In this document: positions 10,005-33,195 of the stretch, one piece after another
Numbering within the stretch: the first letter of the stretch is position 1
Layout of the letters: each line of letters starts with the position of its first letter
Virus record (IMG/VR): IMGVR_UViG_3300030002_000007
Span: 1 to 64,000 of that record
Length of the DNA: 64,000 bases
From: a virus
Direction: 5' to 3' (one strand)
Made by a program: the position numbers and the translations under genes
The notes under the pieces: model-generated
Told to the model about the DNA's origin: nothing
What the model saw: the letters and a program-made list of their open reading frames with translations, nothing else
The model's database searches: none

Positions 10005-11489
10005 TTACTCGTCGTCACCGTCATCATCGTCCGACGGCACATCATCAGTCTCGCCCTTGCCAGCTTTCGCCTTCTGAGTAGACACATACAGAAGTTCACC
10101 GATGCCCTTCGCCATCTGCGAGAAGCAGAACTTGCGAATGCTCATGGGCTTGTACCCCAGCACTGTTGAGATCTTCGTCATTGCATCCTTGTCACCAAGC
10201 ACCCACTTCTTGAAGTAGCCCCAAGGGATCGGCTTCTTTGAGGCACCGAGACCGTCGAGGTTGAGCTTGAAGCCCGCACGCGTACCGGAGAGCTGCCCCG
10301 TCTGCTTGAGGTAGTAGATCGTATCGAACACTGGATCGATACCTCGCGCTTGACCGTCAGCATCTTCCGTCCACAGCCGGATTAAGCACTCACGTTGCGG
10401 CGTCCACAGCTTGTTCTTGTTGGCCTTCAAGTGGACATAGCGGTACGTGTCCAAGCCATCGAATTCAACTGAAGGCTCCTGCTCGTCAAAGGTCTTCTTA
10501 CCCTTCTTCGGACTGAACGGTGCAGCACTCAACGAACGGGACACCTGACGCATACGAACGTCGGAGAACTGCTGCAAGGCCTTGCCGCCCTTTTCAGAAT
10601 CCTTCGGCCCGAACATAGCCATCGGATTGGAACGCAGGTGATTGAGGCCATAGACGGTGACCATCTTCTGCACCATACGACCTTTGACCCGCTCGAGCTG
10701 TTTGGAGAACGCAGAAGCCTTCACCGACAACTGGTTACTGATTTCCTCCTTGTCCTTGGCTTCCGGATTCATCGCCGTGTAAGAATCAACGAAGATGATG
10801 CCCTGCAGCTTGTCGTCAGGAGCCGGCACCCACCAACCATTGCCGTACTTGCGAGTCATGACTGGATCGATGAACTCTTCGATCTCGGCCTTCTTCTTTT
10901 TGTCCTCGGCATCGAAGATCAACCACCACTTGCCCTCAACGTAACGTTTGTCCGGAAGGTCGCGCAAGACTTCGGCCAGCCAGTCGTAGAAGCGTTCAAG
11001 GATAACCTCGGAGCGATAACGGACGCGAGGTGGGATTATGTACTGGCCTGTCTTCGGATCCTGCTTACCGAACACTTGATCCATCGTCATCTTGATGCCC
11101 ATCCCCTTGAGGATGTTATGCACATACGGCTTGGAGTTCTTTGTCGAACCCTCGAAGTCAACAAAGGCAATGATCGGAATGTCAGCCACGATAGCGGCAC
11201 CCATTACGTTCAAGGCAACCGTCGTCTTCGCGCATTGCTCTTCACCAGCCCCGGTCATCATGCAGGGCCGTATGCCCCCACCCAAGACTAAGTCGAGGGC
11301 TAACAGCGCGGTACTCATTGGAGGACACACATCCAACGACGAGCACTCGAAGCCTTGCCGTTTCGCAATGACATTGAGCGTAGTGTTATACATGGCGCGC
11401 ACATCGAGCTTCGGGCGTCTATCGACCTTATCTTCAACAGGTGCCTTCGTTTTCGCCTTTGTTGCTGGCGGTGCTGCTTTTTTAACCAT
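10005..11489 (-). CDS. RecA/UvsX-like recombinase
   Basis: LDLVLGGGI, variant Walker A GEEQCAKTT, FVDFE, FVDS, GGKALQQFSDVRM. Confidence 0.85.
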   Translation of the reverse strand: MVKKAAPPATKAKTKAPVEDKVDRRPKLDVRAMYNTTLNVIAKRQGFECSSLDVCPPMSTALLALDLVLGGGIRPCMMTGAGEEQCAKTTVALNVMGAAIVADIPIIAFVDFEGSTKNSKPYVHNILKGMGIKMTMDQVFGKQDPKTGQYIIPPRVRYRSEVILERFYDWLAEVLRDLPDKRYVEGKWWLIFDAEDKKKKAEIEEFIDPVMTRKYGNGWWVPAPDDKLQGIIFVDSYTAMNPEAKDKEEISNQLSVKASAFSKQLERVKGRMVQKMVTVYGLNHLRSNPMAMFGPKDSEKGGKALQQFSDVRMRQVSRSLSAAPFSPKKGKKTFDEQEPSVEFDGLDTYRYVHLKANKNKLWTPQRECLIRLWTEDADGQARGIDPVFDTIYYLKQTGQLSGTRAGFKLNLDGLGASKKPIPWGYFKKWVLGDKDAMTKISTVLGYKPMSIRKFCFSQMAKGIGELLYVSTQKAKAGKGETDDVPSDDDDGDDE

Positions 11490-13044: not shown

Positions 13045-13992
13045 TCATGTCTCCAATGTGAAAAGTTGCAAAACTGCGCGCTGCTTTGATGAAACAAACT
13101 CAGGGATACGCAATGTCGCTCGAACGTACCCCTCCCGATCATATTGCTTTGCTACCGATGCTACGTGCTCTAATGCTTCAAAATCCATGTCAGGCAATAC
13201 GTCACCCAACTGCGTTCCTTCTTCAACTAGTTCCTCATAACTAGTGTGGTAGTTATCTTTTGCCTGCCGGGCTGCCTCTGCCTTGGCGCTCTTCAACCAA
13301 GAGGAGATGAATGTCGTTAGCACGCCCTGTCTCGAATCGCACCTATCAATTGCCTTGGCAACATACGCCAGATAGATCTGAGCAATGTCGTCCAAAGGGA
13401 ATGAACAAGCCAACTCCTTGTACGTCGACTGCGCTTGCAGCAGAGCCATTCGCATGTACTTCTGAACGATCAGCTCTTTGAACCACCGCGCCTTCCCTTC
13501 CCAGTATTGCACTTCGCGGGAAATGGCAAACAGGTTGTACTTGTACTCCATGCCCAATGCGTCCTGAATGGAAGCTTGAACGCGAAGCTCTGTCTGCTTG
13601 GATACTCTGACAGCCCTTGCCTGAATTTTGTCGTATGTATTTACAAGATGGGCAAAGACAGACAGGATGCCAAACAGGATACCTCGGTTCAGGTGCATGT
13701 TCTCGAAATGCGCGAAGTCCTTTGTGATAATGAGGTTGTAGAAATGATGGGGCATCACGCCCTTCGTATTCATGGAGAACTTGGTCGACGGCTTGAGCGT
13801 CTGCGTAGCCACTACCTTAGCTGCGAAGTTTTCGATGAACGCGGGGGCTGTGCCGTACAGCAAATCCAGACCATGCTTGAGGAAGAACTGAAGAGTGCAG
13901 AGGTACTGGTGGGAGGTTAGATTCCCAACAATGCCTTCTGTGACTCCTTTCAGTGATCCGAACGTCGCGGAGTGTTTGTATGCCTGAGCCAT
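13045..13992 (-). CDS. Phage sigma70-like RNA polymerase sigma factor
   Basis: Region-2-like ELIVQKYMRM...LDDIAQ...KAIDRCDSRQG-LTTFISSWLK. Confidence 0.7.
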   Translation of the reverse strand: MAQAYKHSATFGSLKGVTEGIVGNLTSHQYLCTLQFFLKHGLDLLYGTAPAFIENFAAKVVATQTLKPSTKFSMNTKGVMPHHFYNLIITKDFAHFENMHLNRGILFGILSVFAHLVNTYDKIQARAVRVSKQTELRVQASIQDALGMEYKYNLFAISREVQYWEGKARWFKELIVQKYMRMALLQAQSTYKELACSFPLDDIAQIYLAYVAKAIDRCDSRQGVLTTFISSWLKSAKAEAARQAKDNYHTSYEELVEEGTQLGDVLPDMDFEALEHVASVAKQYDREGYVRATLRIPEFVSSKQRAVLQLFTLET

Positions 13993-14892: not shown

Positions 14893-15113
14893 GTGTCCAC
14901 CTCGTCCATTTCAGTTTCCATGCAGTAATCGTCAACGCGACGAATACTCCCATCTGCTTCCACTACACCAACTGCGATCAGCCGAGCCATACCGTACCTA
15001 GGCTCTGTTGGAAGGATGACTTCAAACCCCTTTCCCAGTTGGTCAGGAACCAAAATGGAACCTACATGAACAACACGAACGTCTACGTTTGAGGAAAGGG
15101 ACTTGACCATCAC
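14889..15113 (-). CDS. Hypothetical protein
   Basis: Small ORF overlapping both neighbours. Confidence 0.5.
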   Translation of the reverse strand: MMVKSLSSNVDVRVVHVGSILVPDQLGKGFEVILPTEPRYGMARLIAVGVVEADGSIRRVDDYCMETEMDEVDT

Positions 15114-15877
15114 CTTGAAAGCTCCACGAGTTGGAAGAATTCAGCACGAGCCATAGCATTATTGCGCATGGCACCCCGCGTCACAGAATTCACCATCAAG
15201 GAGTCTGGATCTTTGACACCTCGATGGCTGCAACACAAATGCTTGGCACGAATCAGCACAGCCAGGCCTTCAGGCTGAGTACAGTCTTCCAAGAAGTCAG
15301 CTATGCGCATCGCCCATTCTTCCTGTATTTGAGGACGGGAAGAAATGTGATCGATTGACCTATGAAATTTGGACAGTCCGATCAGTGCATCTTTTGCGAT
15401 AACACCAACCCATGCGTGCCCGGTGATAGGAACCATGTGATGCGCACAGACACTGCGTATCGTGATGGGCCCGACTACGTACATCTCGTCGATCTGTGTA
15501 ACGTTGGGGAACTCGGTGATCGCGGGGGGCGGGAAATAACGACCCCGATACAATTCCGTAATCATCATCTTTGCCCAACGATTTGCGGTGTCTTTTGAGT
15601 TGTGGTCGTTCTCAGTGTCGATCAGCAAAGCGGCCAACACCGCTTGGAACTTGTCGGCCACTTCTTTCTGCAGGTCGACCAAAGCTCCTTCAGGTATGGC
15701 CTCATAAACTGTGTCTGTACCAAGGGCTGGTAAGCCAAGCTTCTTAATCTCCAGCCACAGGTACTCGCTGCAAGTAAGTGGCGGAACGTAGGGCCCGCTG
15801 TCTATGGCAACAGTAGCCATTACACTGTCGACGGTATTAGCATTGGCAATCTTTGTCAGGGCTTCAAGAGCATCCAT
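15110..15877 (-). CDS. folE: GTP cyclohydrolase I
   Basis: RSVCAHH, IGLSK, RPQIQE, HLCCSHRGV. Confidence 0.92.
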   Translation of the reverse strand: MDALEALTKIANANTVDSVMATVAIDSGPYVPPLTCSEYLWLEIKKLGLPALGTDTVYEAIPEGALVDLQKEVADKFQAVLAALLIDTENDHNSKDTANRWAKMMITELYRGRYFPPPAITEFPNVTQIDEMYVVGPITIRSVCAHHMVPITGHAWVGVIAKDALIGLSKFHRSIDHISSRPQIQEEWAMRIADFLEDCTQPEGLAVLIRAKHLCCSHRGVKDPDSLMVNSVTRGAMRNNAMARAEFFQLVELSR

Positions 15878-15890
15878 TGAGTACTTGTCC

Positions 15891-16721
15891 TTATGCGAGA
15901 TTTACAAAGAGGTGTGTCTGGAGTGACAGCTTCAAGCCATCGTGCTGCAGCACGTACTGCGCTGCGTATTCGTAATTCTTCTTCGTCGCTTCATGATCGA
16001 CGAGCGTCGCATCCCACACGCTGGCCACTTCGCCTTCAGGCGCTCGGAGGTAACGGGCCATCGGCGATACGTAGACCGGGATCATAGAATTCGCCATGAG
16101 GTCGAATGCCCAATCCGGAAGCTCGTGATGTGGGCTGTCCTCGTCGGCGTCGATCACGAACTTCAGGAAGCCATTCATCTCGATCATGTTGAGTACGTCG
16201 AAAGGAATCTTCATGCACTCTTTGGTCTTGTAGTTGGCTTTGGGTGACACGCCGAAGCACACCTTGCCGAATATCTCTTCGGGCAACTGGCGAAGCTGTT
16301 GCGAGAACTGAGGATTGGTACCGTTGCTCTCGAACTGGAAGATCTCGAACGAGGGGCCGACATGCTCTAGGCGCACTAACACATCGAGGATCAGAGGCTG
16401 GAGAGTTGGCTCCCCGCCAGTGATAACGAGGATCACACTCTTGCGATTACCGCGCAAGGTAGTCAACAGGTTTGCAAGCTCTGAGGGTGTGATCTTGGTG
16501 GCGTTCTCCATCTTGAAGTTCGTATCGCAGAACTGACAGAAGTTTGTCTTGTCACCGAAGTTGCACCCAGCCAAACGAACGAACACCGCAGGGTGTCCCG
16601 CGTACGGGCCTTCGCCTTGGATCGTTAACCATGCACCACTAACGTAAAGGTGTGTGGCGTCTTTGAACTCATTTCGAGTCACTGAGCGATCAGTGTTGTG
16701 GGTGACGATAGGTATTACCAT
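15891..16721 (-). CDS. queE: 7-carboxy-7-deazaguanine synthase (radical SAM)
   Basis: TIQGEG, FVRLAGCN...CQFCDT, ITGGEP, ESNG, VSPK, SLQTH; ATG 16721 with GAGG RBS. Confidence 0.92.
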   Translation of the reverse strand: MVIPIVTHNTDRSVTRNEFKDATHLYVSGAWLTIQGEGPYAGHPAVFVRLAGCNFGDKTNFCQFCDTNFKMENATKITPSELANLLTTLRGNRKSVILVITGGEPTLQPLILDVLVRLEHVGPSFEIFQFESNGTNPQFSQQLRQLPEEIFGKVCFGVSPKANYKTKECMKIPFDVLNMIEMNGFLKFVIDADEDSPHHELPDWAFDLMANSMIPVYVSPMARYLRAPEGEVASVWDATLVDHEATKKNYEYAAQYVLQHDGLKLSLQTHLFVNLA

Positions 16722-16858
16722 AATGTTGCCTCTTTCCCTCGTAAGAAATCGGACTCCCATATTGTCAGGAAGGTCGAAGAAACAAACAAATGCTTCTCGT
16801 CCTTGAAGTCCTGACGCAGAGCCACGTGGTCTGCATTATGAATCTTGATCGGTTGCAT
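16715..16858 (-). pseudogene. 47-aa remnant or duplicate of the QueE N-terminus
   Basis: MQPIKIHNADHVALRQDFKDEKHLFVSSTFLTIW aligns without gaps to QueE VIPIVTHNTDRSVTRNEFKDATHLYVSGAWLTIQ. Confidence 0.7.
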
Positions 16859-17318
16859 AGACTGACGCCTTTCCATTTCCGTACACCCGATCGTGAACCT
16901 CTTGAGGCGTGAGGGCCAAGTACCGAGTGAACCGCTTGTTTTCAATAGTTGACACATCACCAGTTCGATAGAAGGCTTCGAGCTGATCACTGTCAGGGAA
17001 TTTGTACGACGGGCCATACACCTTGATCTTGTTGGGTGCGACCTTGCGAGGGAACGTTGTCTTCACAAGCATGCCCGAGGGCTGAACGGCGTACCCAAGC
17101 ATTGGAATCCCTGCTGACTGGAGGAACGCCAAGTTCGCAATCACCAAAACGTTCTTGTGACCCTTCCTATTTACAGGATTGGATAACGATGTGACCCCGA
17201 AAACAAGGAGTGCATCAATCACTTTTGCGTACGCATCGACGGTGGGATTGAAGAACGGAATACCGTAGATGTTCTCATGCTCTACTGAAAAGTATTTCTT
17301 GACTGGCGTCTTCTTCAC
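16836..17318 (-). CDS. Hypothetical protein within the deazaguanine cluster
   Basis: 160 aa; GTGA overlap with dpdA. Confidence 0.65.
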   Translation of the reverse strand: MKKTPVKKYFSVEHENIYGIPFFNPTVDAYAKVIDALLVFGVTSLSNPVNRKGHKNVLVIANLAFLQSAGIPMLGYAVQPSGMLVKTTFPRKVAPNKIKVYGPSYKFPDSDQLEAFYRTGDVSTIENKRFTRYLALTPQEVHDRVYGNGKASVYATDQDS

Positions 17319-18751
17319 TTCGCTCCCTTTGCCTTTCCTGCAATGCCATGAAACTCTTCGTAGCGTTCGATGGCTTTGGTTGTTATTGCGCCTGCCTTCA
17401 AATGGCGATCTGCGACCGTGGCAACTTTGAACAGGCCACTTGGAGCAGACGACTTGCGAAGGAAGCCTTCCAGCACTTCACGATGCTTTGCCCATGCGGG
17501 GTGGAAGCCATTACCCATGTCCATCGTGAAACGATACAGCGCCCGGCACATGTCGGTCAGTCCGGAGGGCGCGGTGATGTTCAAGAGTTCAGACATCTTG
17601 ATCTGACCCTTCAGCATCGCCACCGTAGCTTCGTTTACCACAGCATACATCTGGAACATGGTGTGCATACCGTGCAACGCATTCCCCATCGCCGCCAGCT
17701 TGAAGGCTAACGGGTTCCCGGCTACGTAGCAGATCGGGCAATTGCAAGGCAGCGCAAAGCTGAACGTCTGATTCGGAATTGCAAAGTTCGCGATCTTCGA
17801 TTCCATCGTGTGCCGGATACCCAAGCTGCTGTGCGAGATCGCAGCCTGTGCATACGTTGACGAATCCGAACTGATGAATGGCGCCATACCAAGTGCAGTA
17901 AGGATGATGTAGATCGAGATCATGAATGGGTTGGTGGTTCCCAAGACGTGATACCTTTCGTACTCACCCTTCGTCAAATCTAGGACTGCCGACAAATTCA
18001 CAACTGCCATGAGCTGTGAAGTGAATGCGGTGTCGTAGTTGGCCTGACCGATACCGCCCAACGCTAACCCTACCCCGGCCTTGTGCTTCATGATGTACTC
18101 GGTGAACCTCAACCGATTCGCCAACGTGAGGCCGTGACTCACATCATAGATCGCGGCTTCACTGTTCAGGCTCTTCAGATGACCAGCAATGTACTTGTCG
18201 TTCAAAGCTGTCACTCGGGCCATCCTCATAAACCACTCCGTGTCTTGCAAGTGGCGAGAAAGCGGAATGTCCAAGCCGATGCCGTAGTCAACGTGGCGGT
18301 GATAATGATTGACCAGCTTGTCGGGTTCAATGAACGTCTCAACGCCCTTCGACAACTGGAAGCCACCTGAGTCAGAAAAGATCTTCACCAAGCCGTTACG
18401 CTTGTGGTACGCATCCGGATGCTCGGGCAGCACCATCATGTGGTTGTATCCGATCGACTTCAGCATCTCCGGGTTACTTAACGGAGACAAAGGGAAGCAC
18501 ACATCGAACGCTTCGGACGCAATGCCTGCTGACGAAACGGAACCCATGCCGTAATACACAGTGCGATCGGGTAGGTACATCGTATCCAACCCGAGCTTGC
18601 GCTCTACGGTGTAGGGAGGCTTTTTTGGCTTACCAAACTTCGCCGCGAAGTAACTGTTCCGCGAGATCGAACAGACTGAGGCCGGCATGATCTCGACCTT
18701 AGCTGTACGACGGATTTCAACCGATGGCTTCTTTTGGGTATTCATAATCAA
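17315..18751 (-). CDS. dpdA: DpdA/TGT-like 7-deazaguanine DNA transglycosylase
   Basis: FSDSGGFQ, GLDIP, LALGG, HVLG, SSDSST and zinc site CNCPIC; inside the que cluster. Confidence 0.8.
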   Translation of the reverse strand: MIMNTQKKPSVEIRRTAKVEIMPASVCSISRNSYFAAKFGKPKKPPYTVERKLGLDTMYLPDRTVYYGMGSVSSAGIASEAFDVCFPLSPLSNPEMLKSIGYNHMMVLPEHPDAYHKRNGLVKIFSDSGGFQLSKGVETFIEPDKLVNHYHRHVDYGIGLDIPLSRHLQDTEWFMRMARVTALNDKYIAGHLKSLNSEAAIYDVSHGLTLANRLRFTEYIMKHKAGVGLALGGIGQANYDTAFTSQLMAVVNLSAVLDLTKGEYERYHVLGTTNPFMISIYIILTALGMAPFISSDSSTYAQAAISHSSLGIRHTMESKIANFAIPNQTFSFALPCNCPICYVAGNPLAFKLAAMGNALHGMHTMFQMYAVVNEATVAMLKGQIKMSELLNITAPSGLTDMCRALYRFTMDMGNGFHPAWAKHREVLEGFLRKSSAPSGLFKVATVADRHLKAGAITTKAIERYEEFHGIAGKAKGAK

Positions 18752-19472
18752 TCATCTCGAGGGCCGGAAGGATTTCCTGTTTTCTGTGATCGTCGTAGTA
18801 CGTGCCATAGAGCATCTCGTAAATGATGCGCTGGTTCTCTTCGACGTTCAAGGGATAGATGTTGTACTTCTCAGTCAGTCCCAACTGCGTGAAAATTCCC
18901 CAACGCCTGAAACAGACGACACACGCCCCACATTTGCCAGCCTCGCCAGAAAGACACGAAGAGGAATCAATGATCTCCTGAGCAGGGAGGCCGGCATCCA
19001 ACGCCCACTTGGTAGCTGTGAACTTGTTGAAGCCCGCATCAGCAAGAGGAAAGCGCACTTGGATCTTCGTCTTGAACGGAGACAGTACATAATTCAAGGT
19101 GCGATTTGCATGCTCGAGGAACTCGTAGTTCTTGTCGGTGCCATGCGCGACTGTCTCACCGAGAAGGGCACCCATCCAGATTTCGTCAGGCAGGTCAGCG
19201 CAAGCAACCAGAGTAGCAAGCACCAAGTTGCGACCGGGGATGTAAATGTTACCCGACGTGCTGCCTTCCTTCGCTGCGGCAGCCTTGCCACCGAGCCAAT
19301 CGAGCTTGCGACGAATCACGTAGTCGGGGAGGGCGGCCATTTCCTTCTCAAGGTACTCTTGGCCTATATCGTAGAACACGCAAACAACTTCGGCTTCAGG
19401 GAAATAGAACTCGGCGTACTTCTTCATAATGAGCGAATCAAGTCCGCCAGAAAACAGGATGACGATTTTCAT
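18717..19472 (-). CDS. queC: 7-cyano-7-deazaguanine (preQ0) synthase
   Basis: SGGLDS, YIPGRN, SC...CGACVVC. Confidence 0.92.
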   Translation of the reverse strand: MKIVILFSGGLDSLIMKKYAEFYFPEAEVVCVFYDIGQEYLEKEMAALPDYVIRRKLDWLGGKAAAAKEGSTSGNIYIPGRNLVLATLVACADLPDEIWMGALLGETVAHGTDKNYEFLEHANRTLNYVLSPFKTKIQVRFPLADAGFNKFTATKWALDAGLPAQEIIDSSSCLSGEAGKCGACVVCFRRWGIFTQLGLTEKYNIYPLNVEENQRIIYEMLYGTYYDDHRKQEILPALEMIDYEYPKEAIG

Positions 19473-19474
19473 GA

Positions 19475-19714
19475 CTAGTCCTTCTTCATGAGATCAACGA
19501 TGGGGAGGTCAACCATAGCACGGACGACTCGGACTTCAGCACCTTCGGACACTTCAACGATCCGGGCAACAACGCCGGAACGAGTCGTGATAACAGCGCC
19601 GTCAGGGCTCGCTACTGCTTCCTGAAACATCGCAGTCAGCCGACTCAGATCCTCTGCCGAGGGGTTCCAGTCAGGCCCACCCGCTTCGATATGCAAAATT
19701 TGACGTAAGCTCAT
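19475..19714 (-). CDS. 79-aa stand-alone homolog of an internal portal segment
   Basis: AAGGAG RBS; 18/45 ungapped identities with portal residues 267-311 (hand count). Confidence 0.75.
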   Translation of the reverse strand: MSLRQILHIEAGGPDWNPSAEDLSRLTAMFQEAVASPDGAVITTRSGVVARIVEVSEGAEVRVVRAMVDLPIVDLMKKD

Positions 19715-19718
19715 TGCT

Positions 19719-20225
19719 CTACTCCTTCTGTGAATTGGTTGAAGTACCGTCGCGGAACAATCCGTGGTCACCTTCGACCACTCGATCCATTTCTTCGTAA
19801 GGGAACACTACCCAGTTGGGAGTGATCAACGCAGTCGACTGTGCAATGTGCGCGAAGTCTCCACCGTCGTACCGAGAGTCGATCACCGCTGGATAGATTT
19901 CGTAATTGAGAGTATCCGGTGCCCACTTCATGTGCGCGTGAATGCACTGAACGGTTCTGCCTGTAGCTATCACGTCTTCGAGATAGACGTAAGTAGCATC
20001 GCGCTCCACAGGCTCCGCGTAGTTCCGCGAGGGATGTAACGACTGACCCGACGCCGGGTAGTAAGTGCCAACAGGCATTGCCAACTTGTAGCCAACCAGC
20101 TGGGCCAAGGTCATGCCGCCGCGTACCACAGCAAACAAGTAGGGGTTGGTGATCCGCGCCTTGATGTCTTCTGCAATGGCATAGGCAATCTTCTGCAGCT
20201 CAGCATACGTCATCTGGTGTTTCAT
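19719..20225 (-). CDS. Type I purine phosphoribosyltransferase (Gpt-like)
   Basis: AVVRGG, YLEDVIATGRT PRPP loop, WVVFPYE. Confidence 0.85.
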   Translation of the reverse strand: MKHQMTYAELQKIAYAIAEDIKARITNPYLFAVVRGGMTLAQLVGYKLAMPVGTYYPASGQSLHPSRNYAEPVERDATYVYLEDVIATGRTVQCIHAHMKWAPDTLNYEIYPAVIDSRYDGGDFAHIAQSTALITPNWVVFPYEEMDRVVEGDHGLFRDGTSTNSQKE

Positions 20226-20227
20226 GT

Positions 20228-21394
20228 TTACTCCTTTACTGGTGAGGGCCAAGGTTTACGATTTCTGAATTTCTGATCTTCGAGTGCCCAATCGATACCA
20301 ATGTGATCTTGGGCGAATGGGTGCCACGCTCTCCGACCTGTCCACGAGGTATCTGGATCACTCCAGAACTCATTCAACGGACTCAAGCCAAGAGGGAGTA
20401 GGAAGAACGCTGTGGCATACAAGCTGCCGGTGCTGATGTAAGAATCTGCGAGGGCTTCATCCACGGACACTAGTCCCGGTGTCAAGAAGCCTTCTGAGAA
20501 CATGTGAGGCAGCATCAACTTCAGCGAGGCAGTCAGCGCACATCGAACTGCTGCGGGCCTTATGCCTGTATTTACAATGTCACCATGGAGGGCGCCGTAG
20601 GCAAGTGCGTAGAAGGCACCGAGCCGATAAACGATTGAACGTCCGATTGCCGGGAAGCTTCCCGTCTCTGAGAACTGGCGCTCTTGGATTTCGAGGAAGC
20701 GCAAATAGCGAGCAACAAACACATCCCCCGTAGCTAAGGCGAAGGCACCCGGTATGGCTTTCATCAAATCTTGGATCGCCGGATGTACCACGATACTGTT
20801 GTAGTAGTTGGAGCTGTACAGTGGGCCATCACCATAGATACCATCTCCAACATAGAAGCCATTGAAGGTGTGGATGGCTCGACGCACTGCACTCGAATAT
20901 TGACTGGCGTACGTAATGTCCGTCTCTTGCACGTACAGGAATGCGGTGACCAATGCCTTCTGCAGAATCCAGTTGTTGTCGTAGACGGGCATCATGTTGA
21001 CAGACTGCAGCCAATGAACGAACGAGTGCCGTCCGTAAGAGTCCATCGCCTTCCAAAGCTTGGGACTCCGAGTGAACGCCTGACACAAGTATCCAGCCTC
21101 AATCACGCTCTGCTGCTCCAGCGCAGGTCCTCCGCTGTTGAACAGCGCGCGGAGGCATTCAACAGCCGAGTCATAGAGCTGATGACGCCTACGCAATTCG
21201 GTCTCAGTACACACTGGCATCGACAAGTCCGCTTGGAACCAAGGAGCAAGACCGCAGGTGGTTCTCGCAATAGCCTCGAGCTCAGAGCTTACAGGATTGC
21301 CAGTATGCAGCTCCGGCATCTTCGCACCAGAGTAGACTGGGGTTGCCAGCTGGACAGCAAAATTCACCCACAGCTTACGTGCTTCATTTCGCAT
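20228..21394 (-). CDS. DUF2264-family protein (GH154-like)
   Basis: LEAIART..GLAPW, NNW, YVGDGIYGDG, YYNS-VVHP, FPAIGRSIVYRLGAF, YISTGSLY, LPLGL...FW. Confidence 0.75.
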   Translation of the reverse strand: MRNEARKLWVNFAVQLATPVYSGAKMPELHTGNPVSSELEAIARTTCGLAPWFQADLSMPVCTETELRRRHQLYDSAVECLRALFNSGGPALEQQSVIEAGYLCQAFTRSPKLWKAMDSYGRHSFVHWLQSVNMMPVYDNNWILQKALVTAFLYVQETDITYASQYSSAVRRAIHTFNGFYVGDGIYGDGPLYSSNYYNSIVVHPAIQDLMKAIPGAFALATGDVFVARYLRFLEIQERQFSETGSFPAIGRSIVYRLGAFYALAYGALHGDIVNTGIRPAAVRCALTASLKLMLPHMFSEGFLTPGLVSVDEALADSYISTGSLYATAFFLLPLGLSPLNEFWSDPDTSWTGRRAWHPFAQDHIGIDWALEDQKFRNRKPWPSPVKE

Positions 21395-22175
21395 AGTGAT
21401 CACCTGTCCATGAACCGCCAATGAACGCATGCTCCATACCCATGTGGATTGCTTCACATCCAGTCACTAGCGTGATCTCGATCTTGTTCTCGTTGAGCAG
21501 CTCTTCAAGGCGAACATCGTAACCGCGAACACCCTTCACTTTGAACTTCTCGAGTATGTCGTCCCATAGCTCTGGAGCCTTCCACAACGCCTTGGGCAAA
21601 CAATAGAGCTGTGTGATCGCCGGGTACTTGTGGTGGTAGGCCACTTGCTCGAAGCGATGGTGCTTTGCCTTGTCCATTTCCATGCCGGGCGTGCGAAGGT
21701 ATGCGAACATCGAAGGAAAGATCTCGGTCGTGTAGTCAGCGTAACCCCGACTATCGTTTGCATCTACCACGCCCAAAGTCGCAACGCGATGAGTCTTAGC
21801 ACGATGGACGCATTGCTTCAGGCGATACCACGCATGTCTAGGAACAAGAAGGTCGTCATCAAGGTTGATGAAGAAGTCAAACTCAATCAGCGGATCGACG
21901 TTGCGCTTAGTGTGGGCAACCGACATATCAGCTGGAACGGCCTTGACGATCAGTGCGTTACCTGTGAACTCAGCGAGCAGCTTAAGGTACGGGAACGGAG
22001 AGCATTCAGGCACTTCCCCGTAATGCTGGATGTTGAAGATAGCACCACTGACTGAAGTCATGACGGCTGCGAGTGTCATCGGCAGCAGGTGGTAACGCGA
22101 CGGGCTTGTTGTTGTGAGGAACAGAAAACCATCTAGTGATGTTTGACTAGAGGTCGTTGCTCTGGGGTGTGACAT
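21384..22175 (-). CDS. GT-A fold glycosyltransferase-like protein
   Basis: FFINLDDD DxD motif after a hydrophobic strand; GYD and C-terminal His (AIHMG). Confidence 0.55.
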   Translation of the reverse strand: MSHPRATTSSQTSLDGFLFLTTTSPSRYHLLPMTLAAVMTSVSGAIFNIQHYGEVPECSPFPYLKLLAEFTGNALIVKAVPADMSVAHTKRNVDPLIEFDFFINLDDDLLVPRHAWYRLKQCVHRAKTHRVATLGVVDANDSRGYADYTTEIFPSMFAYLRTPGMEMDKAKHHRFEQVAYHHKYPAITQLYCLPKALWKAPELWDDILEKFKVKGVRGYDVRLEELLNENKIEITLVTGCEAIHMGMEHAFIGGSWTGDHYAK

Positions 22176-22630
22176 GAATACTCCCTGACAAATGAAAGGA
22201 CTGACTTGCGTAGTACGATAACAGCACTAGGAATATCCTCTACAGACGAGACCTCTAGGAAGGTCGTTGCTTCGACTGGAGAGGGAGGAACAAACAAGAC
22301 TGCAGTGTCAGGATAAGGGCACGGCTGACCGGTGTTCATGTAGACGAGAATGTCCGGCTGCACTATGTGGCGATACTCGACGCACAGGCAGGCGAAGTCC
22401 AAGATGGCCACCGCATTCAGTGAGCCACAGTTGAGCCTCGCCAGTCTTGCCATGCGTACAGCTTGATGCCAACGACCTGTATCGGAGAAGTCCCAGTCGT
22501 CGTACATCGCGTGGATGTCATCTTCATTCAGCCAAGTGGCATTCACGGTGTCGATCAACGCCGCGTGCAGGGCCTTAGCTAGTAGGGACTTGCCCGAATT
22601 AGGCAGTCCCATAACAAGGACCTTAATCAC
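22133..22630 (-). CDS. Adenylylsulfate-kinase-like P-loop kinase
   Basis: VLVMGLPNSGKS, WLNED, DWDFSDTGR, DF-C, FVPP; GTG start at 22630. Confidence 0.7.
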   Translation of the reverse strand: MIKVLVMGLPNSGKSLLAKALHAALIDTVNATWLNEDDIHAMYDDWDFSDTGRWHQAVRMARLARLNCGSLNAVAILDFACLCVEYRHIVQPDILVYMNTGQPCPYPDTAVLFVPPSPVEATTFLEVSSVEDIPSAVIVLRKSVLSFVREYSCHTPEQRPLVKHH

Positions 22631-22632
22631 GA

Positions 22633-23235
22633 CTATTCCTGAACGTAAAGCGAATGGCTCTTCGGAGTCTCCCACCAGTCTACAGACGCCACGCGACACA
22701 GGCGCTGCATCTTCCACGCGACAATATCGAACATCCACTTACTGAGGTTCTCACTCGTCGGCACGAAGTCGACGATGAAGAAGCTTTCCAGATACTCGCG
22801 CATATGGATCGGAAGCTCCGGAGGAAGCATGATGCGACGACCCACGACCATCTGCGAATACATGCCGCCGCTATTCGGAGAGTTGGCAACGTCCGTGCGT
22901 TCGATCTTCCACGGATACAGAATTGCGTCCGGGTGGCCGGGCATATTGAGCAACGACTGCATGAGAGGATCATTAACGTCGATGATGAAGTGGTGATCGA
23001 TGATCTGGTTCAGGAACGTCTTGAGCCATTCGAGGTGACGGAAATCCGTGACCATGCCATTGCGGAGTTCGATGCCACCGAGCAGCGAAGTGAGCGTAAC
23101 GTCTACCTTGCCTTCGTGGCCGTGCAGATGTCGGCAAGCACACAGAAGATCGCTGGCGAACTCAGAGTCAAGAGTCTGACTCCACACGCGGTGACCATAA
23201 CAGAATTCGACGGCCTTCGTTATAAAGTGGGGCAT
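22633..23235 (-). CDS. queD: 6-carboxytetrahydropterin synthase
   Basis: FCYGHRV, CRHLHGH, GMVTDF, DH, PTSENL, WETPKS. Confidence 0.92.
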   Translation of the reverse strand: MPHFITKAVEFCYGHRVWSQTLDSEFASDLLCACRHLHGHEGKVDVTLTSLLGGIELRNGMVTDFRHLEWLKTFLNQIIDHHFIIDVNDPLMQSLLNMPGHPDAILYPWKIERTDVANSPNSGGMYSQMVVGRRIMLPPELPIHMREYLESFFIVDFVPTSENLSKWMFDIVAWKMQRLCRVASVDWWETPKSHSLYVQE

Positions 23236-23237
23236 TG

Positions 23238-23546
23238 CTATTCCTTTCGGGGTGTGATGATTGAAATATCGACCTTGCGGGTATCGGATAGCTTGAAGCT
23301 CATTACTTTGGCACAAGCTACGTTGGAGATCTCGGTAACATCGCCACCGAGCAGTTTGGGGAGGACGGTGATTATGAGCTTCATGTGGTTGCTGTCTTCA
23401 GTCCTAGGCACAGCAACCAGATCAAGATCGTTGTCGCTATAGCCGTTGTTCAACACCCCACCAGCCAAGGCTAGGTAGTAGCCTGCCGCCATGACCTCAG
23501 GTTGCATAACGCGAATTAACCGAAGGGCTTCATCAGTCGTCCACAT
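23238..23546 (-). CDS. Minimal Pol-beta-type nucleotidyltransferase-like protein
   Basis: LAGGVL...SDNDLDLV...VDI; TGATG coupling to the upstream gene. Confidence 0.55.
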   Translation of the reverse strand: MWTTDEALRLIRVMQPEVMAAGYYLALAGGVLNNGYSDNDLDLVAVPRTEDSNHMKLIITVLPKLLGGDVTEISNVACAKVMSFKLSDTRKVDISIITPRKE

Positions 23547-23752
23547 CACAGACCCATCCATTTTGTTACGGCAGAGAATCCCGGAGCCTTTTCCCACAAC
23601 CAGTGTTCAATAGGAAAGCCCAATGTAGTGCCTATCCAGAACGAGGAGTCCATCAACACTGATTTACAGGAATGGTAACAGGAAACCAGAAGCCCAGTGC
23701 GGTCATAGTGATAGTGGCGCTTGCCGGCCTCAGTCTTTGGAAACTTTATCAT
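23546..23752 (-). CDS. Hypothetical protein
   Basis: 68-aa ORF overlapping both neighbours; GAGG RBS. Confidence 0.55.
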   Translation of the reverse strand: MIKFPKTEAGKRHYHYDRTGLLVSCYHSCKSVLMDSSFWIGTTLGFPIEHWLWEKAPGFSAVTKWMGL

Positions 23753-24746
23753 GCGTCATCCTCGCGTATGAAAGCGTTTTGTCGACGAGATCCTGAACGC
23801 GCTTCGGGAGCTTCTTGCCCATAAGGAAGAAGGCAACTGACTCGGCGATCAGCTCATACACCGATTTTGTCGCGTATTCGGAAACGATAGGAGCCAAATC
23901 CTTCTTGTGCAAAGTACGGATAGGCCACAGTGCTTTGATCTCGTCAAGGTCGCCAGACTCGAACAGCATGTCGAGCTCTTTGATCCCTACTGCGTGATCG
24001 GCCTTGATAAGGCGAATGATCTGCCGGTAGGCCAACGCATCTTCTTCCTCGAGATCAGACACGAAGCCTGATGGGAAAGTCTGCCCACCGACCAAGTTGT
24101 CGAGAAGCTTCTGGCTCAATGCTTTCGGCACAGTAGCCAGCTTGATGGACGTATTGAACTCGATCACCCACCTGGCCATCAGCTTGGGATGGTTGGCATA
24201 CAGGCGATTGAGTTGGTGCGCCAGCTCGTGATAGATGACGTAGGGGAATTCGGTCGGCACCATCTTCTCAGGGCGAATGAGGAAGCGATGCGGGTTCTTT
24301 TCTGGCTTGGTGGAATGTTTGTACATCCCTGCATACTTGCCGCCACCCTTGGCACTACGGATTTCCCACACGCCGTCGCCCATGAGAAAATCAAGGCGAT
24401 TCTTCTTCAGGGTCTTCGCTGCAATGTTGAAGGCTGACATGACTGAAGTGCCGACGTCCTTCTTGACGCGATACAGGAACGAGATCTGACCGAAGTCGTC
24501 ATGCTGCTTCGTGACTACGTGATAGGTAATGTCCACGCCGTAGATAGAACCATGCCGAGGCTCTTGCCCAAGGTTGAGCACTATGTCGGCAGGTACAACT
24601 TCGATGGGTGTGCGGCGAACCGTAACGTGATAGTCTTTGGCGAGAAACCCGTGAATGGTTCCTTTCGACAAAGACATGACCTGCATCAGGAACGTCTGCT
24701 TCTGCTGCTCACACAGCAGGTAGTCTTTTACTTGAACTGTACTCAT
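23730..24746 (-). CDS. HExxH zinc-metallopeptidase-like protein
   Basis: IYHELAH and SEYATKSVYELIAES. Confidence 0.55.
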   Translation of the reverse strand: MSTVQVKDYLLCEQQKQTFLMQVMSLSKGTIHGFLAKDYHVTVRRTPIEVVPADIVLNLGQEPRHGSIYGVDITYHVVTKQHDDFGQISFLYRVKKDVGTSVMSAFNIAAKTLKKNRLDFLMGDGVWEIRSAKGGGKYAGMYKHSTKPEKNPHRFLIRPEKMVPTEFPYVIYHELAHQLNRLYANHPKLMARWVIEFNTSIKLATVPKALSQKLLDNLVGGQTFPSGFVSDLEEEDALAYRQIIRLIKADHAVGIKELDMLFESGDLDEIKALWPIRTLHKKDLAPIVSEYATKSVYELIAESVAFFLMGKKLPKRVQDLVDKTLSYARMTHDKVSKD

Positions 24747-24818: not shown

Positions 24819-25703
24819 TTACGAAACTGCGACGACGGGGGCTGCGGGCGCCACAGCTGCATCCGGACCTGCGACAACTGCAGCGGGGGCGACTGCCGCT
24901 TCAACTGCCACCGGGACGGTACCGAGTTCTTGTTGCAGCTTTTGATCGACAGCTTCAGGCGAATCGGAACCCAAGTGCAGACAGACGACGCTGTGCTTCT
25001 TCGACATCTTCGGGAAGACACCGAGATACGTCGACCAGTTCACCGTGAATGAATCTGTGACGACAAATGACGGGATCACGCCGGACACGCTGTCTGGATC
25101 GAACAGTGACTCGAGGCCTTCGATTGTGACGCCGGCTTGCTCAAGGACTTTGCGGTCGAATTCGATGATGTGGTCGGTAAGGCCTTCGTTGAGCAACGGG
25201 TTCTGTGAATACGCGACGACTGCGGAGTTGAGGGTCAGCGCTGCGAGATGATGAACTGGCAAGGCTTCTTGCGTGAATGACACCAAGGAAGGCTCCAGTA
25301 CTGCTGTCAAGTCAACGCCTTCACGGCCGTCATCGACGACTTCATCATCGGCGTCAGGGGCTTCGTCGGTGATCTCGAGTTCGAGGCCATCGTCTTCAGG
25401 AACTTCTTCTGCATCCGTCTCGCCAGCTTCTTCCATATCGCTGAGATCGCGGTAGGCGAGAAGCTGATCGACCATGCTTTCGACCTCAGGGGCAACATTG
25501 AAGAACGTGCGCTCTTCCATGAACAGATCGAGGGGCTTCGTGAGGACTTGCCCGTCTTCGCTCAGGAACACAGCTTGCGGAGGGAACCGCTCTTGAACCC
25601 GAGGCTTGAGCTCCAAGTTGCTGATGAACAGGAGCGTTGATTTCTTGCCGGCTTCGTTGATCCAGACTGCACCGGGCGTCATGAACGTAATATCGTTGGA
25701 CAT
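24819..25703 (-). CDS. Acidic hypothetical protein with Ala/Val/Pro tail
   Basis: Long ORF, AAGGA upstream, TGTAAAT element upstream. Confidence 0.65.
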   Translation of the reverse strand: MSNDITFMTPGAVWINEAGKKSTLLFISNLELKPRVQERFPPQAVFLSEDGQVLTKPLDLFMEERTFFNVAPEVESMVDQLLAYRDLSDMEEAGETDAEEVPEDDGLELEITDEAPDADDEVVDDGREGVDLTAVLEPSLVSFTQEALPVHHLAALTLNSAVVAYSQNPLLNEGLTDHIIEFDRKVLEQAGVTIEGLESLFDPDSVSGVIPSFVVTDSFTVNWSTYLGVFPKMSKKHSVVCLHLGSDSPEAVDQKLQQELGTVPVAVEAAVAPAAVVAGPDAAVAPAAPVVAVS

Positions 25704-25780
25704 CTTTTTTCTTTCCTTTGCTTTGTTGTAGTTGAACATCACCATGGTTTGCTACATCGAGTATTTACAGTATTGAGTTT

Positions 25781-29770: not shown

Positions 29771-30142
29771 TCAATGTAGGTTTGGTTTTGGAATTGGAGA
29801 GAAGGCAGTTGACGAATCAGTAGCAAGCTTGCCACCATAGTGAGAGAGCATGTGACGAGGGTTTGAGATGTCGCCCGCAGTCAAGTGCTCTAGTAGATCA
29901 AGTGCGAACGAGGGAACCTGAGCGTCCGTCAGGTACGCGTCAGTGCTGTACAGCTCAGTGCTAAATACGGGGAAGGGAAACTCGACGAGCTCTCCATGCA
30001 CGGCAACGACCAACTTCGCATACGTTATATGGTAGAAGTTTTGGCGCCAGCTGTGCATGAATAGCATATACGAATCGTCTCGGCCATCGATGATCCATGT
30101 CAAGAGCGACACGGCCTCTAGCGAGAAGTAAGGAGGGCTCAC
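29771..30142 (-). CDS. Hypothetical protein
   Basis: GGAGG RBS; GTGA overlap with the polymerase stop. Confidence 0.6.
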   Translation of the reverse strand: MSPPYFSLEAVSLLTWIIDGRDDSYMLFMHSWRQNFYHITYAKLVVAVHGELVEFPFPVFSTELYSTDAYLTDAQVPSFALDLLEHLTAGDISNPRHMLSHYGGKLATDSSTAFSPIPKPNLH

Positions 30143-33100
30143 GCCGCCTCCATCTCAGGTTCAGGTTTACGGACATACACCGGTTTCACAGCGGTGAGGA
30201 TCTGTTCGTCTAGGTCTGTGACATTCAACAACGGGAAATGCTCTTGCAGGTATGCCCGGACTTGCGCGCTACGCCACGGCTTGAAGATGCGCTTCATCAC
30301 CTCAGCTTTCGGCATGTCCAGCTTCTTCATGTCTTCCATATCGGTGAGAGCCTTTTCGATATTGACGACTAGGTTGGGTATGGACCAATCCCACTTGTAG
30401 CTCTTGTCATCACGCGAGGACACTTCGATTTCGATTTCAGGTTCGATAGTGAAATGCACACCGAACTCATCTGCGTAGGCCTTAGTGATTCCATAGGTCG
30501 CCTCCCACTGCAAGATATGAATGAACGGGATCACCATCTCGTAAGGCACACAGAAGTACGAAGCGTCATGCACAATACGATTGAAGAAGATGCGGAACCT
30601 CGACGGCTTCCAGTCATCAAGCTTCATCATCTTTCGGAGAGTGGCACATTGATCGTAGTACGTCTCCATGATCCGACGAGATGCCTTCGTGCCGATCTCC
30701 GACGCGAAGCCTTGGATAGGTGCATTTGCACCACGTCGGGTCTGCTTGGCAGTAATGCCTTGATCGCCCATCAACCCAGCTAGCATCAAACGCCGACGGC
30801 CAATCGGGGAGTAGACATAGAACTCTTCCTCCGCCATCTTCACCATCTTGTCGATCCAAGCCTTGCCCTTACTGAATTCGGCAAACAGCTTGTCCATGAT
30901 GTCTTGAGCGTACGGGCTACGATCTTCTTCAAGCAAGGCTAGGAGTTGCTCTTCGACCACATCTATCTCTCCCTGCACTTTCCGATCACCATCGCGTAGC
31001 CGCTTGTACATCCCATTAAGCTTTGCTCGTAGCTCTTTGATCTCTGCCTCTTTCGTGTCATGCCCCAACGTCCGAGCACCCTTCAAGTAGATGACTCCGA
31101 AAATAACCTTCTTCACAGCGTCACGCAATGGGCTGCTCTTGTCCACGATCTTGTTGAAGAATCGCTTGACGTTCAGAAGGTGGAAGTCTCCATCTCGTTT
31201 GATCTCTGCTGCCATCTCGGGCGTCGGAGATTTGATCCAACGCTGCCGCAGCTTCTGACCAATCGCAAACACCGCAGCTAGAAGCTTGTCACCCGACACG
31301 ATCGACCACACTCGAACTTCGTGGGCTGAATAATCGAACCGAATGAGCAAGTGACCGATAGGTGCTCGGAACATCGCCTTGATGATCTTCGACAGTTTAC
31401 CTCGCGCCGGAATGTTTTGCAGGTTCGGATTCTTCGAGGCTAGGCGTCCCGTGTCCACATCGAAGAACGAATAGTCCGGGCGCAAATACGAATCAAGGGA
31501 GGAGTCAAGGTCTGATCTGATTCTTCGATACCAACCCTTGACGTAGGTGCTCAACAGCTTGGCGGCTTCTTGGTAGTCGCCGAACATTGAAACGATCAGG
31601 CTCTTGTCTTTGTAGTATGCGATGTAGTTCTTATCGATTGCATCGGCACCGGCCTTCGTCTTGGAGATTGCTGGCAGATTCAATATGTCGAAGAAGAGCT
31701 TACGCTTATGCTCCGTCTTGCCGAGGGACAGTATCCAACGTGCTGCCGCACCTGCCTTAGCAAACAAGCCCTTCGACTTGAAGCCCGATTCTCCGAGCAA
31801 CTCAGTATTAGCTTTCTGCACGTCAGGATGCAAATACAGCTCGTCGAGCAAGCGCTTGATTTCAATATCTAGCACTGACCCTTCAGCCATCAACGACCGG
31901 AGGTATGTACGACTCACCAAGGAGCCATCTTGCTTCAAGTGCGAGAGCTGGTGGGCTGTGTCCGACATCTGGTAGCGCATGTGGTTGTCGAAGTACGGCA
32001 ACCAATCTTTGCCAGCGATCTTGATCCTTGACGCCCGCTCCCTCTGCATCTTCCGCATGTGCAATAAGCACACCGCATCCATCGATGCATACTCAAGGAA
32101 GTCTGGATTGTTCGGCTCGACGTTCCCGCATGTGGCGCGTTCGCCCTTGGAGAACTTGGCTGTGTAGTAGTGATCGTTGCCGTAGCGACACAGGGCGGCA
32201 GCTAGGCCACCTGCTCGGAAGCCATAGGAAGGCAGGCTCGATATGTTCTCATCTAGCAAGTGCTCACCGGCAGTTATCTCCCACACCGGTGCTTTGATGA
32301 TAAGCATGTTCAAGCACGTGCGAAGGACTCGCAGGTCGAACATGCCATTGTAGGTGAGGAAGATGTTGGTCTTCAGGCGTAGACGCGCTCGCAAGGTCGC
32401 CTTGATCTCTTTCCGTTCTTCCTGAGTGAATGGAGACTTGGGGTGGTCGACTGGAATGACAAAGCCCAGCTCGGGATTAGAGTCGAAGCACAGCTGCACG
32501 GTGTAGATCTTGTTGTGATAGACCGACAGATTCTTCGTCTCCGTGTCCAAGCCGATGTACTCAGACTTGTCGAACAGCTTGGTCATCTTCCTGAACAACT
32601 CGATCGTACCGACGTACTTGGGCTTGTTGATCAACTCCTTCAAAGAGCAGGGGTCTTTGCCGAGCAGCAAGTGTGAGAGATCCCGGCAGAAGAAGCCGAG
32701 CAGGTTGGCTAGGGCACCATTCTTCTCAGTGAGCCGTGCAAGATCGAGCGTAGAGGTGACCTTGCGCTTGTCGATAGTATGAACCCAGCCATTCTTCTCG
32801 ACGGGGTGGGTAACAGGATAGATCAGGGATAGATTCCCTGAGAACAAAATGTGCGTGGGGTTGAGCTTCTCGATCAGATCGAGGGTACGCTCTTTGAAGG
32901 AACGCTCAACGTCGAGTCGAGCGGAGTCTCGCATGTGGAAGCTTTTGGCGTCGTTAAAGTTTATAACGGCGTAGGAGAACTCAGGGATGTCGCCCCAAGT
33001 GCGGGCGAACTTGCGCGCGTACTTGATGCAGTTGGAGAGAGTGGGGGTGCTGGCTAATCTCCCACTCTTCAGATCTGCAGTGTCGACGGTCTGCAGGATG

Positions 33101-33195
33101 ACCAGTAAGCGATGCTTGGACTGTTCCCATGACTGGTCACGGCCAAGGGTCAGGTTGTAATCTACGGTGTCAGCTTTGAATCCACGATCAAACAT
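30139..33195 (-). CDS. polA: Family A DNA polymerase with 3'-5' exonuclease and N-terminal extra domain
   Basis: Exo GLDTET, YNGMFD, YASMD; TGRLAS-NPNLQNIP; DYSAHEVR; K-VIFG-IY; NAPIQG; VHDA. Confidence 0.93.
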   Translation of the reverse strand: MFDRGFKADTVDYNLTLGRDQSWEQSKHRLLVILQTVDTADLKSGRLASTPTLSNCIKYARKFARTWGDIPEFSYAVINFNDAKSFHMRDSARLDVERSFKERTLDLIEKLNPTHILFSGNLSLIYPVTHPVEKNGWVHTIDKRKVTSTLDLARLTEKNGALANLLGFFCRDLSHLLLGKDPCSLKELINKPKYVGTIELFRKMTKLFDKSEYIGLDTETKNLSVYHNKIYTVQLCFDSNPELGFVIPVDHPKSPFTQEERKEIKATLRARLRLKTNIFLTYNGMFDLRVLRTCLNMLIIKAPVWEITAGEHLLDENISSLPSYGFRAGGLAAALCRYGNDHYYTAKFSKGERATCGNVEPNNPDFLEYASMDAVCLLHMRKMQRERASRIKIAGKDWLPYFDNHMRYQMSDTAHQLSHLKQDGSLVSRTYLRSLMAEGSVLDIEIKRLLDELYLHPDVQKANTELLGESGFKSKGLFAKAGAAARWILSLGKTEHKRKLFFDILNLPAISKTKAGADAIDKNYIAYYKDKSLIVSMFGDYQEAAKLLSTYVKGWYRRIRSDLDSSLDSYLRPDYSFFDVDTGRLASKNPNLQNIPARGKLSKIIKAMFRAPIGHLLIRFDYSAHEVRVWSIVSGDKLLAAVFAIGQKLRQRWIKSPTPEMAAEIKRDGDFHLLNVKRFFNKIVDKSSPLRDAVKKVIFGVIYLKGARTLGHDTKEAEIKELRAKLNGMYKRLRDGDRKVQGEIDVVEEQLLALLEEDRSPYAQDIMDKLFAEFSKGKAWIDKMVKMAEEEFYVYSPIGRRRLMLAGLMGDQGITAKQTRRGANAPIQGFASEIGTKASRRIMETYYDQCATLRKMMKLDDWKPSRFRIFFNRIVHDASYFCVPYEMVIPFIHILQWEATYGITKAYADEFGVHFTIEPEIEIEVSSRDDKSYKWDWSIPNLVVNIEKALTDMEDMKKLDMPKAEVMKRIFKPWRSAQVRAYLQEHFPLLNVTDLDEQILTAVKPVYVRKPEPEMEAA

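Follow-up and report, generated by a model that had tools for sequence, protein, structure and literature searches.

Why would a jumbo phage encode a free-standing protein of 79 residues that resembles an internal piece of a portal, and what might such a protein do some 18 kb away from the portal gene, in a run of 7-deazaguanine genes? The question arises from a stretch of viral DNA (hereafter the window) that corresponds to the first 64 kb of an IMG/VR virus record of 81,478 bp, estimated to be 34% complete. This record is a fragment of a jumbo phage, and DNA near-identical to it occurs in many peat metagenomes (at least half of the sampled words in 10 of the 24 runs listed).

The gene for the small protein (P0001, hereafter the mini-protein) belongs to a single long minus-strand array that spans positions 125–33195 of the window, from the DNA polymerase to the portal (Table 1). 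As this array is continuous, the position of the gene gives no information on early or late timing. Its immediate surroundings are a minus-strand run made up of folE, queE, open reading frames (ORFs) of 160 and 478 residues, queC and the mini-protein gene. Beyond the latter the run continues to queD through genes that break the 7-deazaguanine cluster between queD and queC (19719–23316), namely a phosphoribosyltransferase-like gene, a DUF2264 gene (E = 3.8e-58), an ORF of 263 residues and an APS-kinase-like gene. The interrupted cluster could represent an extended modification pathway.

Table 1 Features of the window referred to in the text, in order of position
Feature	Position	Strand	Remarks
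Portal protein P0002, 498 aa, PaBG/Lu11/phiRSL1 type	125-1621	minus	phrog_16240, E = 2.4e-165
Portal clip segment, residues 263-321	659-835	minus	Homologous to the mini-protein
Large terminase subunit, 696 aa	7226-9316	minus	phrog_17415, E = 1e-200; candidate partner of the mini-protein
UvsX-like recombinase	10005-11489	minus	
Phage sigma factor	13045-13992	minus	
folE	15110-15877	minus	
queE	15891-16760	minus	
478-aa ORF	17315-18751	minus	No Pfam match at E <= 0.01 and no PHROG match at E <= 0.001
queC	18717-19472	minus	PF06508, E = 3.7e-13; ATG 2 nt past the mini-protein stop
Mini-protein P0001	19475-19714	minus	79 aa and TAG stop; free-standing clip-like domain
Phosphoribosyltransferase-like gene	19719-20252	minus	PF00156, E = 4.9e-5, 23.1 bits, under the curated cut-off of 26.3
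AAGGAG ribosome-binding site	19722-19727	minus	7 nt upstream of the ATG at 19714, within the last codons of the upstream gene
338-aa ORF	23730-24746	minus	Matched in phage Motura (see text)
308-aa ORF	24819-25745	minus	Matched in phage Motura (see text)
DNA polymerase	30139-33195	minus	

A preliminary description of this DNA had given the ORF an AAGGAG ribosome-binding site of its own, and this site is read directly from the sequence. The phosphoribosyltransferase-like gene stops 4 nt ahead of the mini-protein ATG and, judged from the spacing on the other side, queC is translationally coupled to the mini-protein gene. An alternative version that starts at a GTG would comprise 98 residues and overlap the gene upstream. 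This version is less likely, given that relatives of 65–91 residues begin at the same M-x-x-R-x-I-L-H point as the 79-residue form. The base composition is neighbour-like, with a GC3 of 0.56 for the mini-protein compared to 0.555–0.69 in the neighbouring genes. By its ribosome-binding site, tight coupling, composition and family-wide conservation, the ORF looks like a real gene.

The exact mini-protein sequence is present on eight contigs, and the ORF is identical in contigs from peat metagenomes (whole in X2 and X4, in part in X5). Between four peat runs and positions 18700–20300 of the window, 40 differences are listed, none of which lies inside the ORF, so that there is no polymorphism to score; the contig from X3 (19617–20300, covering the ORF from 19617 to 19714) has three further differences beyond those 40. 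Run X2 also holds a second contig that is roughly 88% identical to window positions 18700–19070, the 3′ end of queC (43 differences in 371 nt). It represents a related strain from the same habitat and stops short of the mini-protein ORF.

The portal protein of this phage has 478 relatives at E ≤ 1e-5, and its structural model matches solved portals with Z scores of about 15. Its ORF is shorter than those of its relatives (498 residues compared to 557–665), lacks a C-terminal tail of roughly 100 residues found in an alignment of 51 portal sequences, and reaches to within 124 nt of the beginning of the record. The preliminary description had aligned residues 4–48 of the mini-protein to portal residues 267–311, placed at nucleotides 689–823, with 18 of 45 positions identical and no gaps. 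BLASTP returns precisely this alignment (E = 6e-11 in a single comparison), and the nucleotide positions agree. The mini-protein alone matches the portal PHROG (E = 2.5e-9, positions 290–355 of 643 in the profile), and a profile of 27 stand-alone relatives matches the portal ORF in the genome (E = 1.5e-16). The comparison of hidden Markov models (HMMs) that had been proposed as a check, run with hhalign, pairs residues 1–60 of the mini-protein with portal residues 263–321 at 98.8% probability (E = 5.2e-17, 59 columns). Within this segment H271, G275, W279, P281, L286, F293, D299, G302 and R308 are invariant in the 51 portal sequences. Sequence searches of the PDB gave no match for the portal and matches for the mini-protein only at E > 0.5. 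At the level of sequence, the homology between the mini-protein and the portal segment is far past chance, and we are highly confident that the mini-protein is both a paralogue of the clip and a real gene.

The assignment of this segment to the clip, which had been made by position, holds in an AlphaFold2 model of the portal (51 sequences, pLDDT 65.7; the stems are of low confidence in this monomer model). There, a helix (240–255) is followed by a strand (269–274), a helix (283–298), a strand (311–316) and another helix (321–339), after which come a long helix (353–390) and C-terminal helices. The modelled order of elements is the canonical one of stem, clip, stem, wing helix and crown, and the homologous segment lies between the helices 240–255 and 321–339, ahead of the helix 353–390. 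The mini-protein itself (27 sequences, pLDDT 69.5) is modelled as a strand (3–11), a helix (20–35) and two strands (48–56 and 62–68). This predicted makeup agrees with the clip of the SPbeta portal YonE, whose three strands and single helix lie between two stem helices according to the accessible text of PMC12847820.

We compared the mini-protein model with 48,161 chains by a method other than Foldseek, and 15 of the top 20 matches are portal, neck or connector proteins by title. They align at mid-chain windows and are weak, with Z scores of only 2.8–4.1. Among them is the portal of P23-45, matched at residues 232–297, a span that includes the helix 263–275; the available portion of the P23-45 report places the clip helix and loop at these residues (PMC7234808). 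A Foldseek search of the PDB with the same model reached only E values of about 1. In BFVD, the PaBG portal comes first (probability 1.00, E = 9.5e-3, 48 columns, 2.6 Å), followed by an unnamed protein of 196 residues. Searches of the ESM Atlas returned no usable feature match, and their structure matches were based on a poor model. Thus, the clip assignment is well supported by homology and topology, and weakly by superposition.

To what family, then, does a free clip belong? A phmmer search of 1.84 billion representative sequences with the mini-protein gave 365 matches at E ≤ 1e-3, of which we examined the best 150. A family HMM confirms 56 of these 150: three portal-sized proteins, one portal fragment (P0269) and 52 small proteins of 65–326 residues. 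Among the best 150 of the 365 matches, at least 52 clusters at 50% identity carry the conserved signature. The nearest proteins in that set, the free proteins P0126 and P0133, are 55% and 49% identical to the mini-protein and are therefore too distant for an analysis of dN/dS. Homologue searches for closer relatives returned only P0001 itself when started from P0001 and six proteins, all already found, when started from the family alignment; scans of IMG/VR with P0001, P0126 and P0133 found no relative, nor did a megablast search of positions 17000–22500 against phages give a match.

W16, P18, F30 and A33 are invariant in the alignment of 27 family members, and H8, G12, T44 and R45 are conserved in at least 90% of them. 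Ten positions (H, G, W, P, L, F, A, T, R and V) are common to 61 copies of the free domain and 124 portals, and the shared signature reads H-x3-G-x3-W-x-P-[ST]-x-E-[ED]-L ... F-x2-A ... T-R-x-[GA]-V. Its polar residues H, T and R could stabilise the fold or form a shared binding surface. The family also has a feature of its own, a C-terminal hairpin (residues 49–69 of the mini-protein) where the portal runs on into the stem helix. Architectures are diverse. Among 54 short proteins, a count that includes P0001 itself and the portal fragment P0269, 19 consist of the bare domain and 18 contain two repeats, while N- or C-terminal extensions occur in 24, seven of which are two-repeat proteins. One member is fused to a HigA-type helix-turn-helix (HTH; TIGR02607, E = 4.3e-18), others carry an XRE-type region or, in one case, DUF1653. 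Two of 52 short proteins, P0214 and P0166, have N termini that look by eye like export signals; by the same kind of inspection, the leader of P0214 is twin-arginine-like and the tail of P0212 is rich in Cys and His.

The remaining 94 of the best 150 phmmer matches are WD40-repeat proteins that align only to residues 26–70 of the mini-protein. All four of those tested are WD40 proteins in Pfam, and 91 of the 94 contain at least two SPDG motifs. Residues 31–69 of the mini-protein (19508–19624, minus strand) resemble a single WD40 blade (SPDG..T.S..AR......G.E.RV.R), and the summing of repeats drew WD40 proteins into the list. We rejected membership of the WD40 family: the resemblance does not go past one blade, P0001 has no WD40 match in Pfam at E ≤ 1 and the family HMM matches none of the 94, for which reason we judge the likeness to be convergent.

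No Pfam or NCBIfam model covers the free clip domain. The Pfam families HrpB2 and YajC were considered for the mini-protein and rejected, both at E = 0.11 and far under their cut-offs. In PHROGs, residues 3–71 match positions 97–166 of the 182 positions of phrog_11049 (E = 7.8e-5), a weak match that involves only the C-terminal part of the profile and that the portal also gives (E = 0.0026). None of the matches in Pfam, NCBIfam and PHROGs supplies the name of an anti-defence family for the mini-protein. The free clip family is thus without a name in Pfam or NCBIfam, of ‘unknown function’ in PHROGs and, as described below, mislabelled in one RefSeq record. A literature search found no account of free clip-domain proteins, including in the accessible text of a comparative paper on jumbo phages (PMC7824862).

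In GenBank phages, tblastn matches 73 records with P0001 and 94 with P0126; among the records listed, all phages have genomes of roughly 195–280 kb except one of 78 kb, and most of the matches are to portals. Whole-record searches with the family profile found both a portal and a free copy in Lu11 (gp133, 196 residues), BcepSauron (gp210, 154 residues with two repeats), the Burkholderia phage BCSR5 (QRE00113, 152 residues) and Motura (gp019, two repeats), and only the portal in Vibrio phage GR11A and Rhizobium phage RHph_N46. BcepSauron gp210 (NC_049851.1, 118595–119059) is labelled ‘portal protein’ in RefSeq, which is a mislabel; the true portal is an open frame of 652 residues at about 150 kb.

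Whereas all 28 large IMG/VR relatives searched carry the portal copy, nine carry an extra one, seven of them with strong matches (G001, G002, G005, G006, G017, G023 and G028, of which G001 and G002 are near-identical) and two with weak ones. Among relatives that are at least 90% complete, the extra copy is found in three of 11. The free clip gene is therefore accessory. Free genes lie far from the portal, amid genes for helicases, primases, topoisomerases, thymidylate synthases and resolvases. A scan of 185,579 prokaryotic species genomes with a degenerate motif gave one match where, by our own estimate, about two are expected by chance, and we rejected this sole match as a chance one, as it is not accepted by the family HMM. 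The same pattern matches 70 of 146 other loci that we studied, mostly at portal genes, and does not match the mini-protein ORF; because it catches portals and misses the mini-protein, it documents the absence of this type of portal from chromosomes better than the absence of free copies.

Where did the free domains come from? The preliminary description took the mini-protein for a copy of a segment of the phage’s own portal, which does not stand: with its own clip the mini-protein shares 40% identity, compared to 60% (29 of 48 positions) with the clip of P0224, a distant portal that overall is only 34% identical to that of this phage. It did not arise by recent copying of its own portal. When the nine genomes with both forms are compared in an hmmalign alignment, its own portal ranks 7.5 of nine for the mini-protein; averaged over 11 free domains, the own portal ranks 3.95 compared to 5.0 by chance. 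The tracking of own portals by free domains is thus a weak trend overall and nil for this phage. In a tree of 105 rows and 52 columns, which is poorly resolved and omits two-thirds of the portals as well as domain matches of fewer than 40 HMM positions, the portals are tightly clustered on short branches and the free domains, among which P0001 is placed, have long ones. Three changes of the free or portal label are needed on this tree, and a single origin of the free domains remains compatible with the data.

Sequence types within the clip add to this picture. The portal of this phage and most others are of the type DPLGGW, and those of Lu11, G023, G028 and P0224 are of the type DP.GA[VT], to which most free copies, the mini-protein included, also belong. 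The second repeats of BcepSauron and Motura retain the portal motif (DPLGGW or DPNGGW), and the free copy of G028 is closest to the portal type of G028 and Lu11. Some free copies therefore look freshly derived from portals, which is a hint of multiple origins from portals or of gene conversion; the retained motifs would fit repeated recruitment. From all these features, we conclude that the mini-protein belongs to an old, fast-diverging, accessory and unnamed family of clip-like proteins in jumbo phages of the PaBG/Lu11/phiRSL1 type.

The location inside a modification operon, which the preliminary description had noted, is real in this phage and is not kept across relatives. Of the nine relatives with the extra copy only G006 and G023 have queC, which lies 41 kb and 22 kb, respectively, from the nearest free copy, and we rejected a conserved linkage to queC because the gene is distant or missing in these relatives. 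In Motura, some 2 kb separate gp019 from queD and queC. However, Motura gp015 and gp016 (‘peptidase’) match the ORFs of 308 and 338 residues of the window (Table 1), so that these ORFs, the clip-like gene and queD/queC form a syntenic block present in both genomes. As gp015 and gp016 also match the window, the link to queD and queC in Motura looks like inherited synteny and may be a matter of ancestry, not of function. In BcepSauron, Motura, G001/G002 and G005, a GroES-like gene is found no more than about 2.5 kb from the free copy (in G005 adjacent to it); such a gene is absent from the record studied here and from G017, G023 and G028, and is about 15 kb off in G006. We rejected GroES as a general neighbour, as its proximity is confined to one sub-lineage.

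What could a free clip be for? The portal clip domain is textbook knowledge, and the large terminase is a known clip partner. According to the accessible text of a study of phage SPbeta (PMC12847820), clips serve terminase and the tail machinery as docking stations, and those of the SPbeta portal ring also receive SpbK, a TIR defence protein that needs the resulting clustering for its activation; other STAND sensors are described as recognising portals. By analogy, the mini-protein would be a soluble and monovalent mimic of the portal clip, presumably produced alongside DNA-metabolism genes. Its likeliest partner would be a putative host immune sensor that reads the portal via the clip. Bound to a single free clip instead of a 12-fold ring, such a sensor would not cluster and would not fire, and the mini-protein would serve as a decoy or sponge.

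We regard it as somewhat probable that the mini-protein acts via some clip-type binding. That it is specifically the decoy of a host sensor is a tentative reading, drawn by analogy and held with clear doubt. What leads us to prefer it is a conflict-like pattern: the extra copy is found in three of 11 near-complete relatives compared to 28 of 28 for the portal copy, branches are long and tandem duplication affects 18 of 54 short proteins. Patchy spread, fast divergence, changes in copy number and non-structural neighbours look like conflict and not like core morphogenesis. Counting against a decoy are the fusions to HTH, DUF1653 and other parts, which a pure decoy does not predict, the lack of co-variation between the mini-protein and the own portal, and the modest quality of the predicted fold (pLDDT 69.5) and of its structural matches (Z of 3–4.1). 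The broader proposition, that jumbo phages of the PaBG/Lu11/phiRSL1 type have repeatedly spun off fast-evolving free clips that, as monovalent mimics of the portal vertex, soak up SpbK-, Avs4- or Avs11-like sensors before the portal ring appears, we consider unlikely; if true, these would be the first anti-defence decoys made from a piece of a virion structural protein.

The same observations can be read differently. The strand–helix–strand–strand unit might be a generic module for self-association or binding that pairs side by side, and the free copies dimerisation or scaffolding adaptors with a different target, which we hold to be rather unlikely. Such a module would fit the diversity of architectures (bare, two-repeat and extended forms), the fusions to HigA-type HTH and DUF1653, the export-signal-like N termini of P0214 and P0166, and a gene neighbourhood that is not conserved, with GroES nearby in some genomes only; it accounts for the HTH and other fusions and for the missing link to the own portal about as well as a decoy does. 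Yet, among the genomes checked, every free copy is accompanied by a portal of the same type, the signature residues are identical to those of the portal down to the polar ones, and some copies keep portal motifs. At the opposite extreme, the ORF could be what is left of a duplicated portal gene, functionless and open by chance. Its shortness would suit such a remnant, as would the fact that no RNA run is among those listed with this DNA, although the latter is neutral as to expression, but the strong ribosome-binding site and tight coupling on both sides, the shared start and end points of relatives of 65–91 residues, a signature kept in at least 52 clusters, a family-specific C-terminal hairpin outside the portal alignment and the distance to the own portal all make this extremely improbable.

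Two further readings have phage proteins as the target. The free clip might capture the large terminase or a neck protein and so keep it away from the portal until both replication and modification of the DNA are complete. In favour of such a timer are the docking of terminase and tail at the clip (in the accessible text of PMC12847820), the apparent translational coupling to queC within the 7-deazaguanine cluster and the proximity of the Motura homologue to queD and queC. A core regulator should be conserved, yet the free copy occurs in only three of 11 near-complete relatives; queC is found in two of nine relatives with the extra copy, at distances of tens of kilobases, and the proximity in Motura belongs to a larger stretch of synteny with the window. 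As the operon location is not conserved, the idea that terminase is held off until the DNA is modified is weakened, and we consider it improbable. We give a similarly low probability to the mini-protein as a binder of portal subunits that pairs with the clips of monomers as a neighbouring subunit does; it would then either help the phage’s own portal to assemble, as chaperone or cap, or poison the portal of a co-infecting relative. In the model of YonE, as the available sections of PMC12847820 describe it, all portal subdomains including the clip make inter-subunit contacts, and blockers made from a copy of a single domain are known, for example RpnS (PMC10327210, from the part accessible). 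The greater likeness to the P0224 clip than to the own one, and the DP.GA[VT] type of most free copies compared to the DPLGGW of this phage’s portal, also count in favour of a binder. Against the binder, the mini-protein shows no co-variation with its own portal, and the sporadic spread argues against a general role in assembly.

The free clip family matters because it provides a compact handle on a hub, the portal clip, at which terminase and neck proteins dock and so does at least one host immune protein. If the free copies are decoys, they would embody a new principle of counter-defence, the mimicry of a structural protein, and would point to clip-sensing defences against jumbo phages; if they instead bind terminase or portal subunits, they would be natural modulators of packaging or assembly. 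The homologues in the cultured phages Lu11, BcepSauron, BCSR5 and Motura make the function directly testable.

Among known systems, the closest is the portal of phrog_16240 itself. The mini-protein has the same sequence-level homology and signature as its clip and lacks the wing, stem, tunnel loop and crown; whereas a full-length portal unites wing, stem, clip and crown in one chain, the mini-protein has 79 residues and therefore cannot be a portal. It also differs from portal clips in its C-terminal hairpin and in evolving much faster. The uncharacterised proteins Lu11 gp133, BcepSauron gp210, BCSR5 QRE00113 and Motura gp019 carry the same free domain and are likewise encoded far from a portal of the same type and among DNA-metabolism genes. 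These four are longer (152–196 residues), owing to extra N-terminal regions or two repeats, and none of their genes lies inside a 7-deazaguanine operon, unlike that of the mini-protein.

More broadly, the mini-protein recalls ‘microProteins’, short products that resemble a single domain of a bigger protein and target that protein or its partners. The SPbeta system of YonE and SpbK provides the logic of a decoy, as there the clip is read by a host defence that needs the 12-fold ring (PMC12847820, accessible text); it involves a different portal family and host, and that text describes no free clip or clip-like inhibitor. RpnS and RpnL offer the other parallel. According to the accessible part of PMC10327210, RpnS is likewise a short protein homologous to the interaction domain of a larger oligomeric protein of the same genome, but whereas RpnS is translated from within the same gene, the mini-protein is the product of a separate and anciently diverged one.
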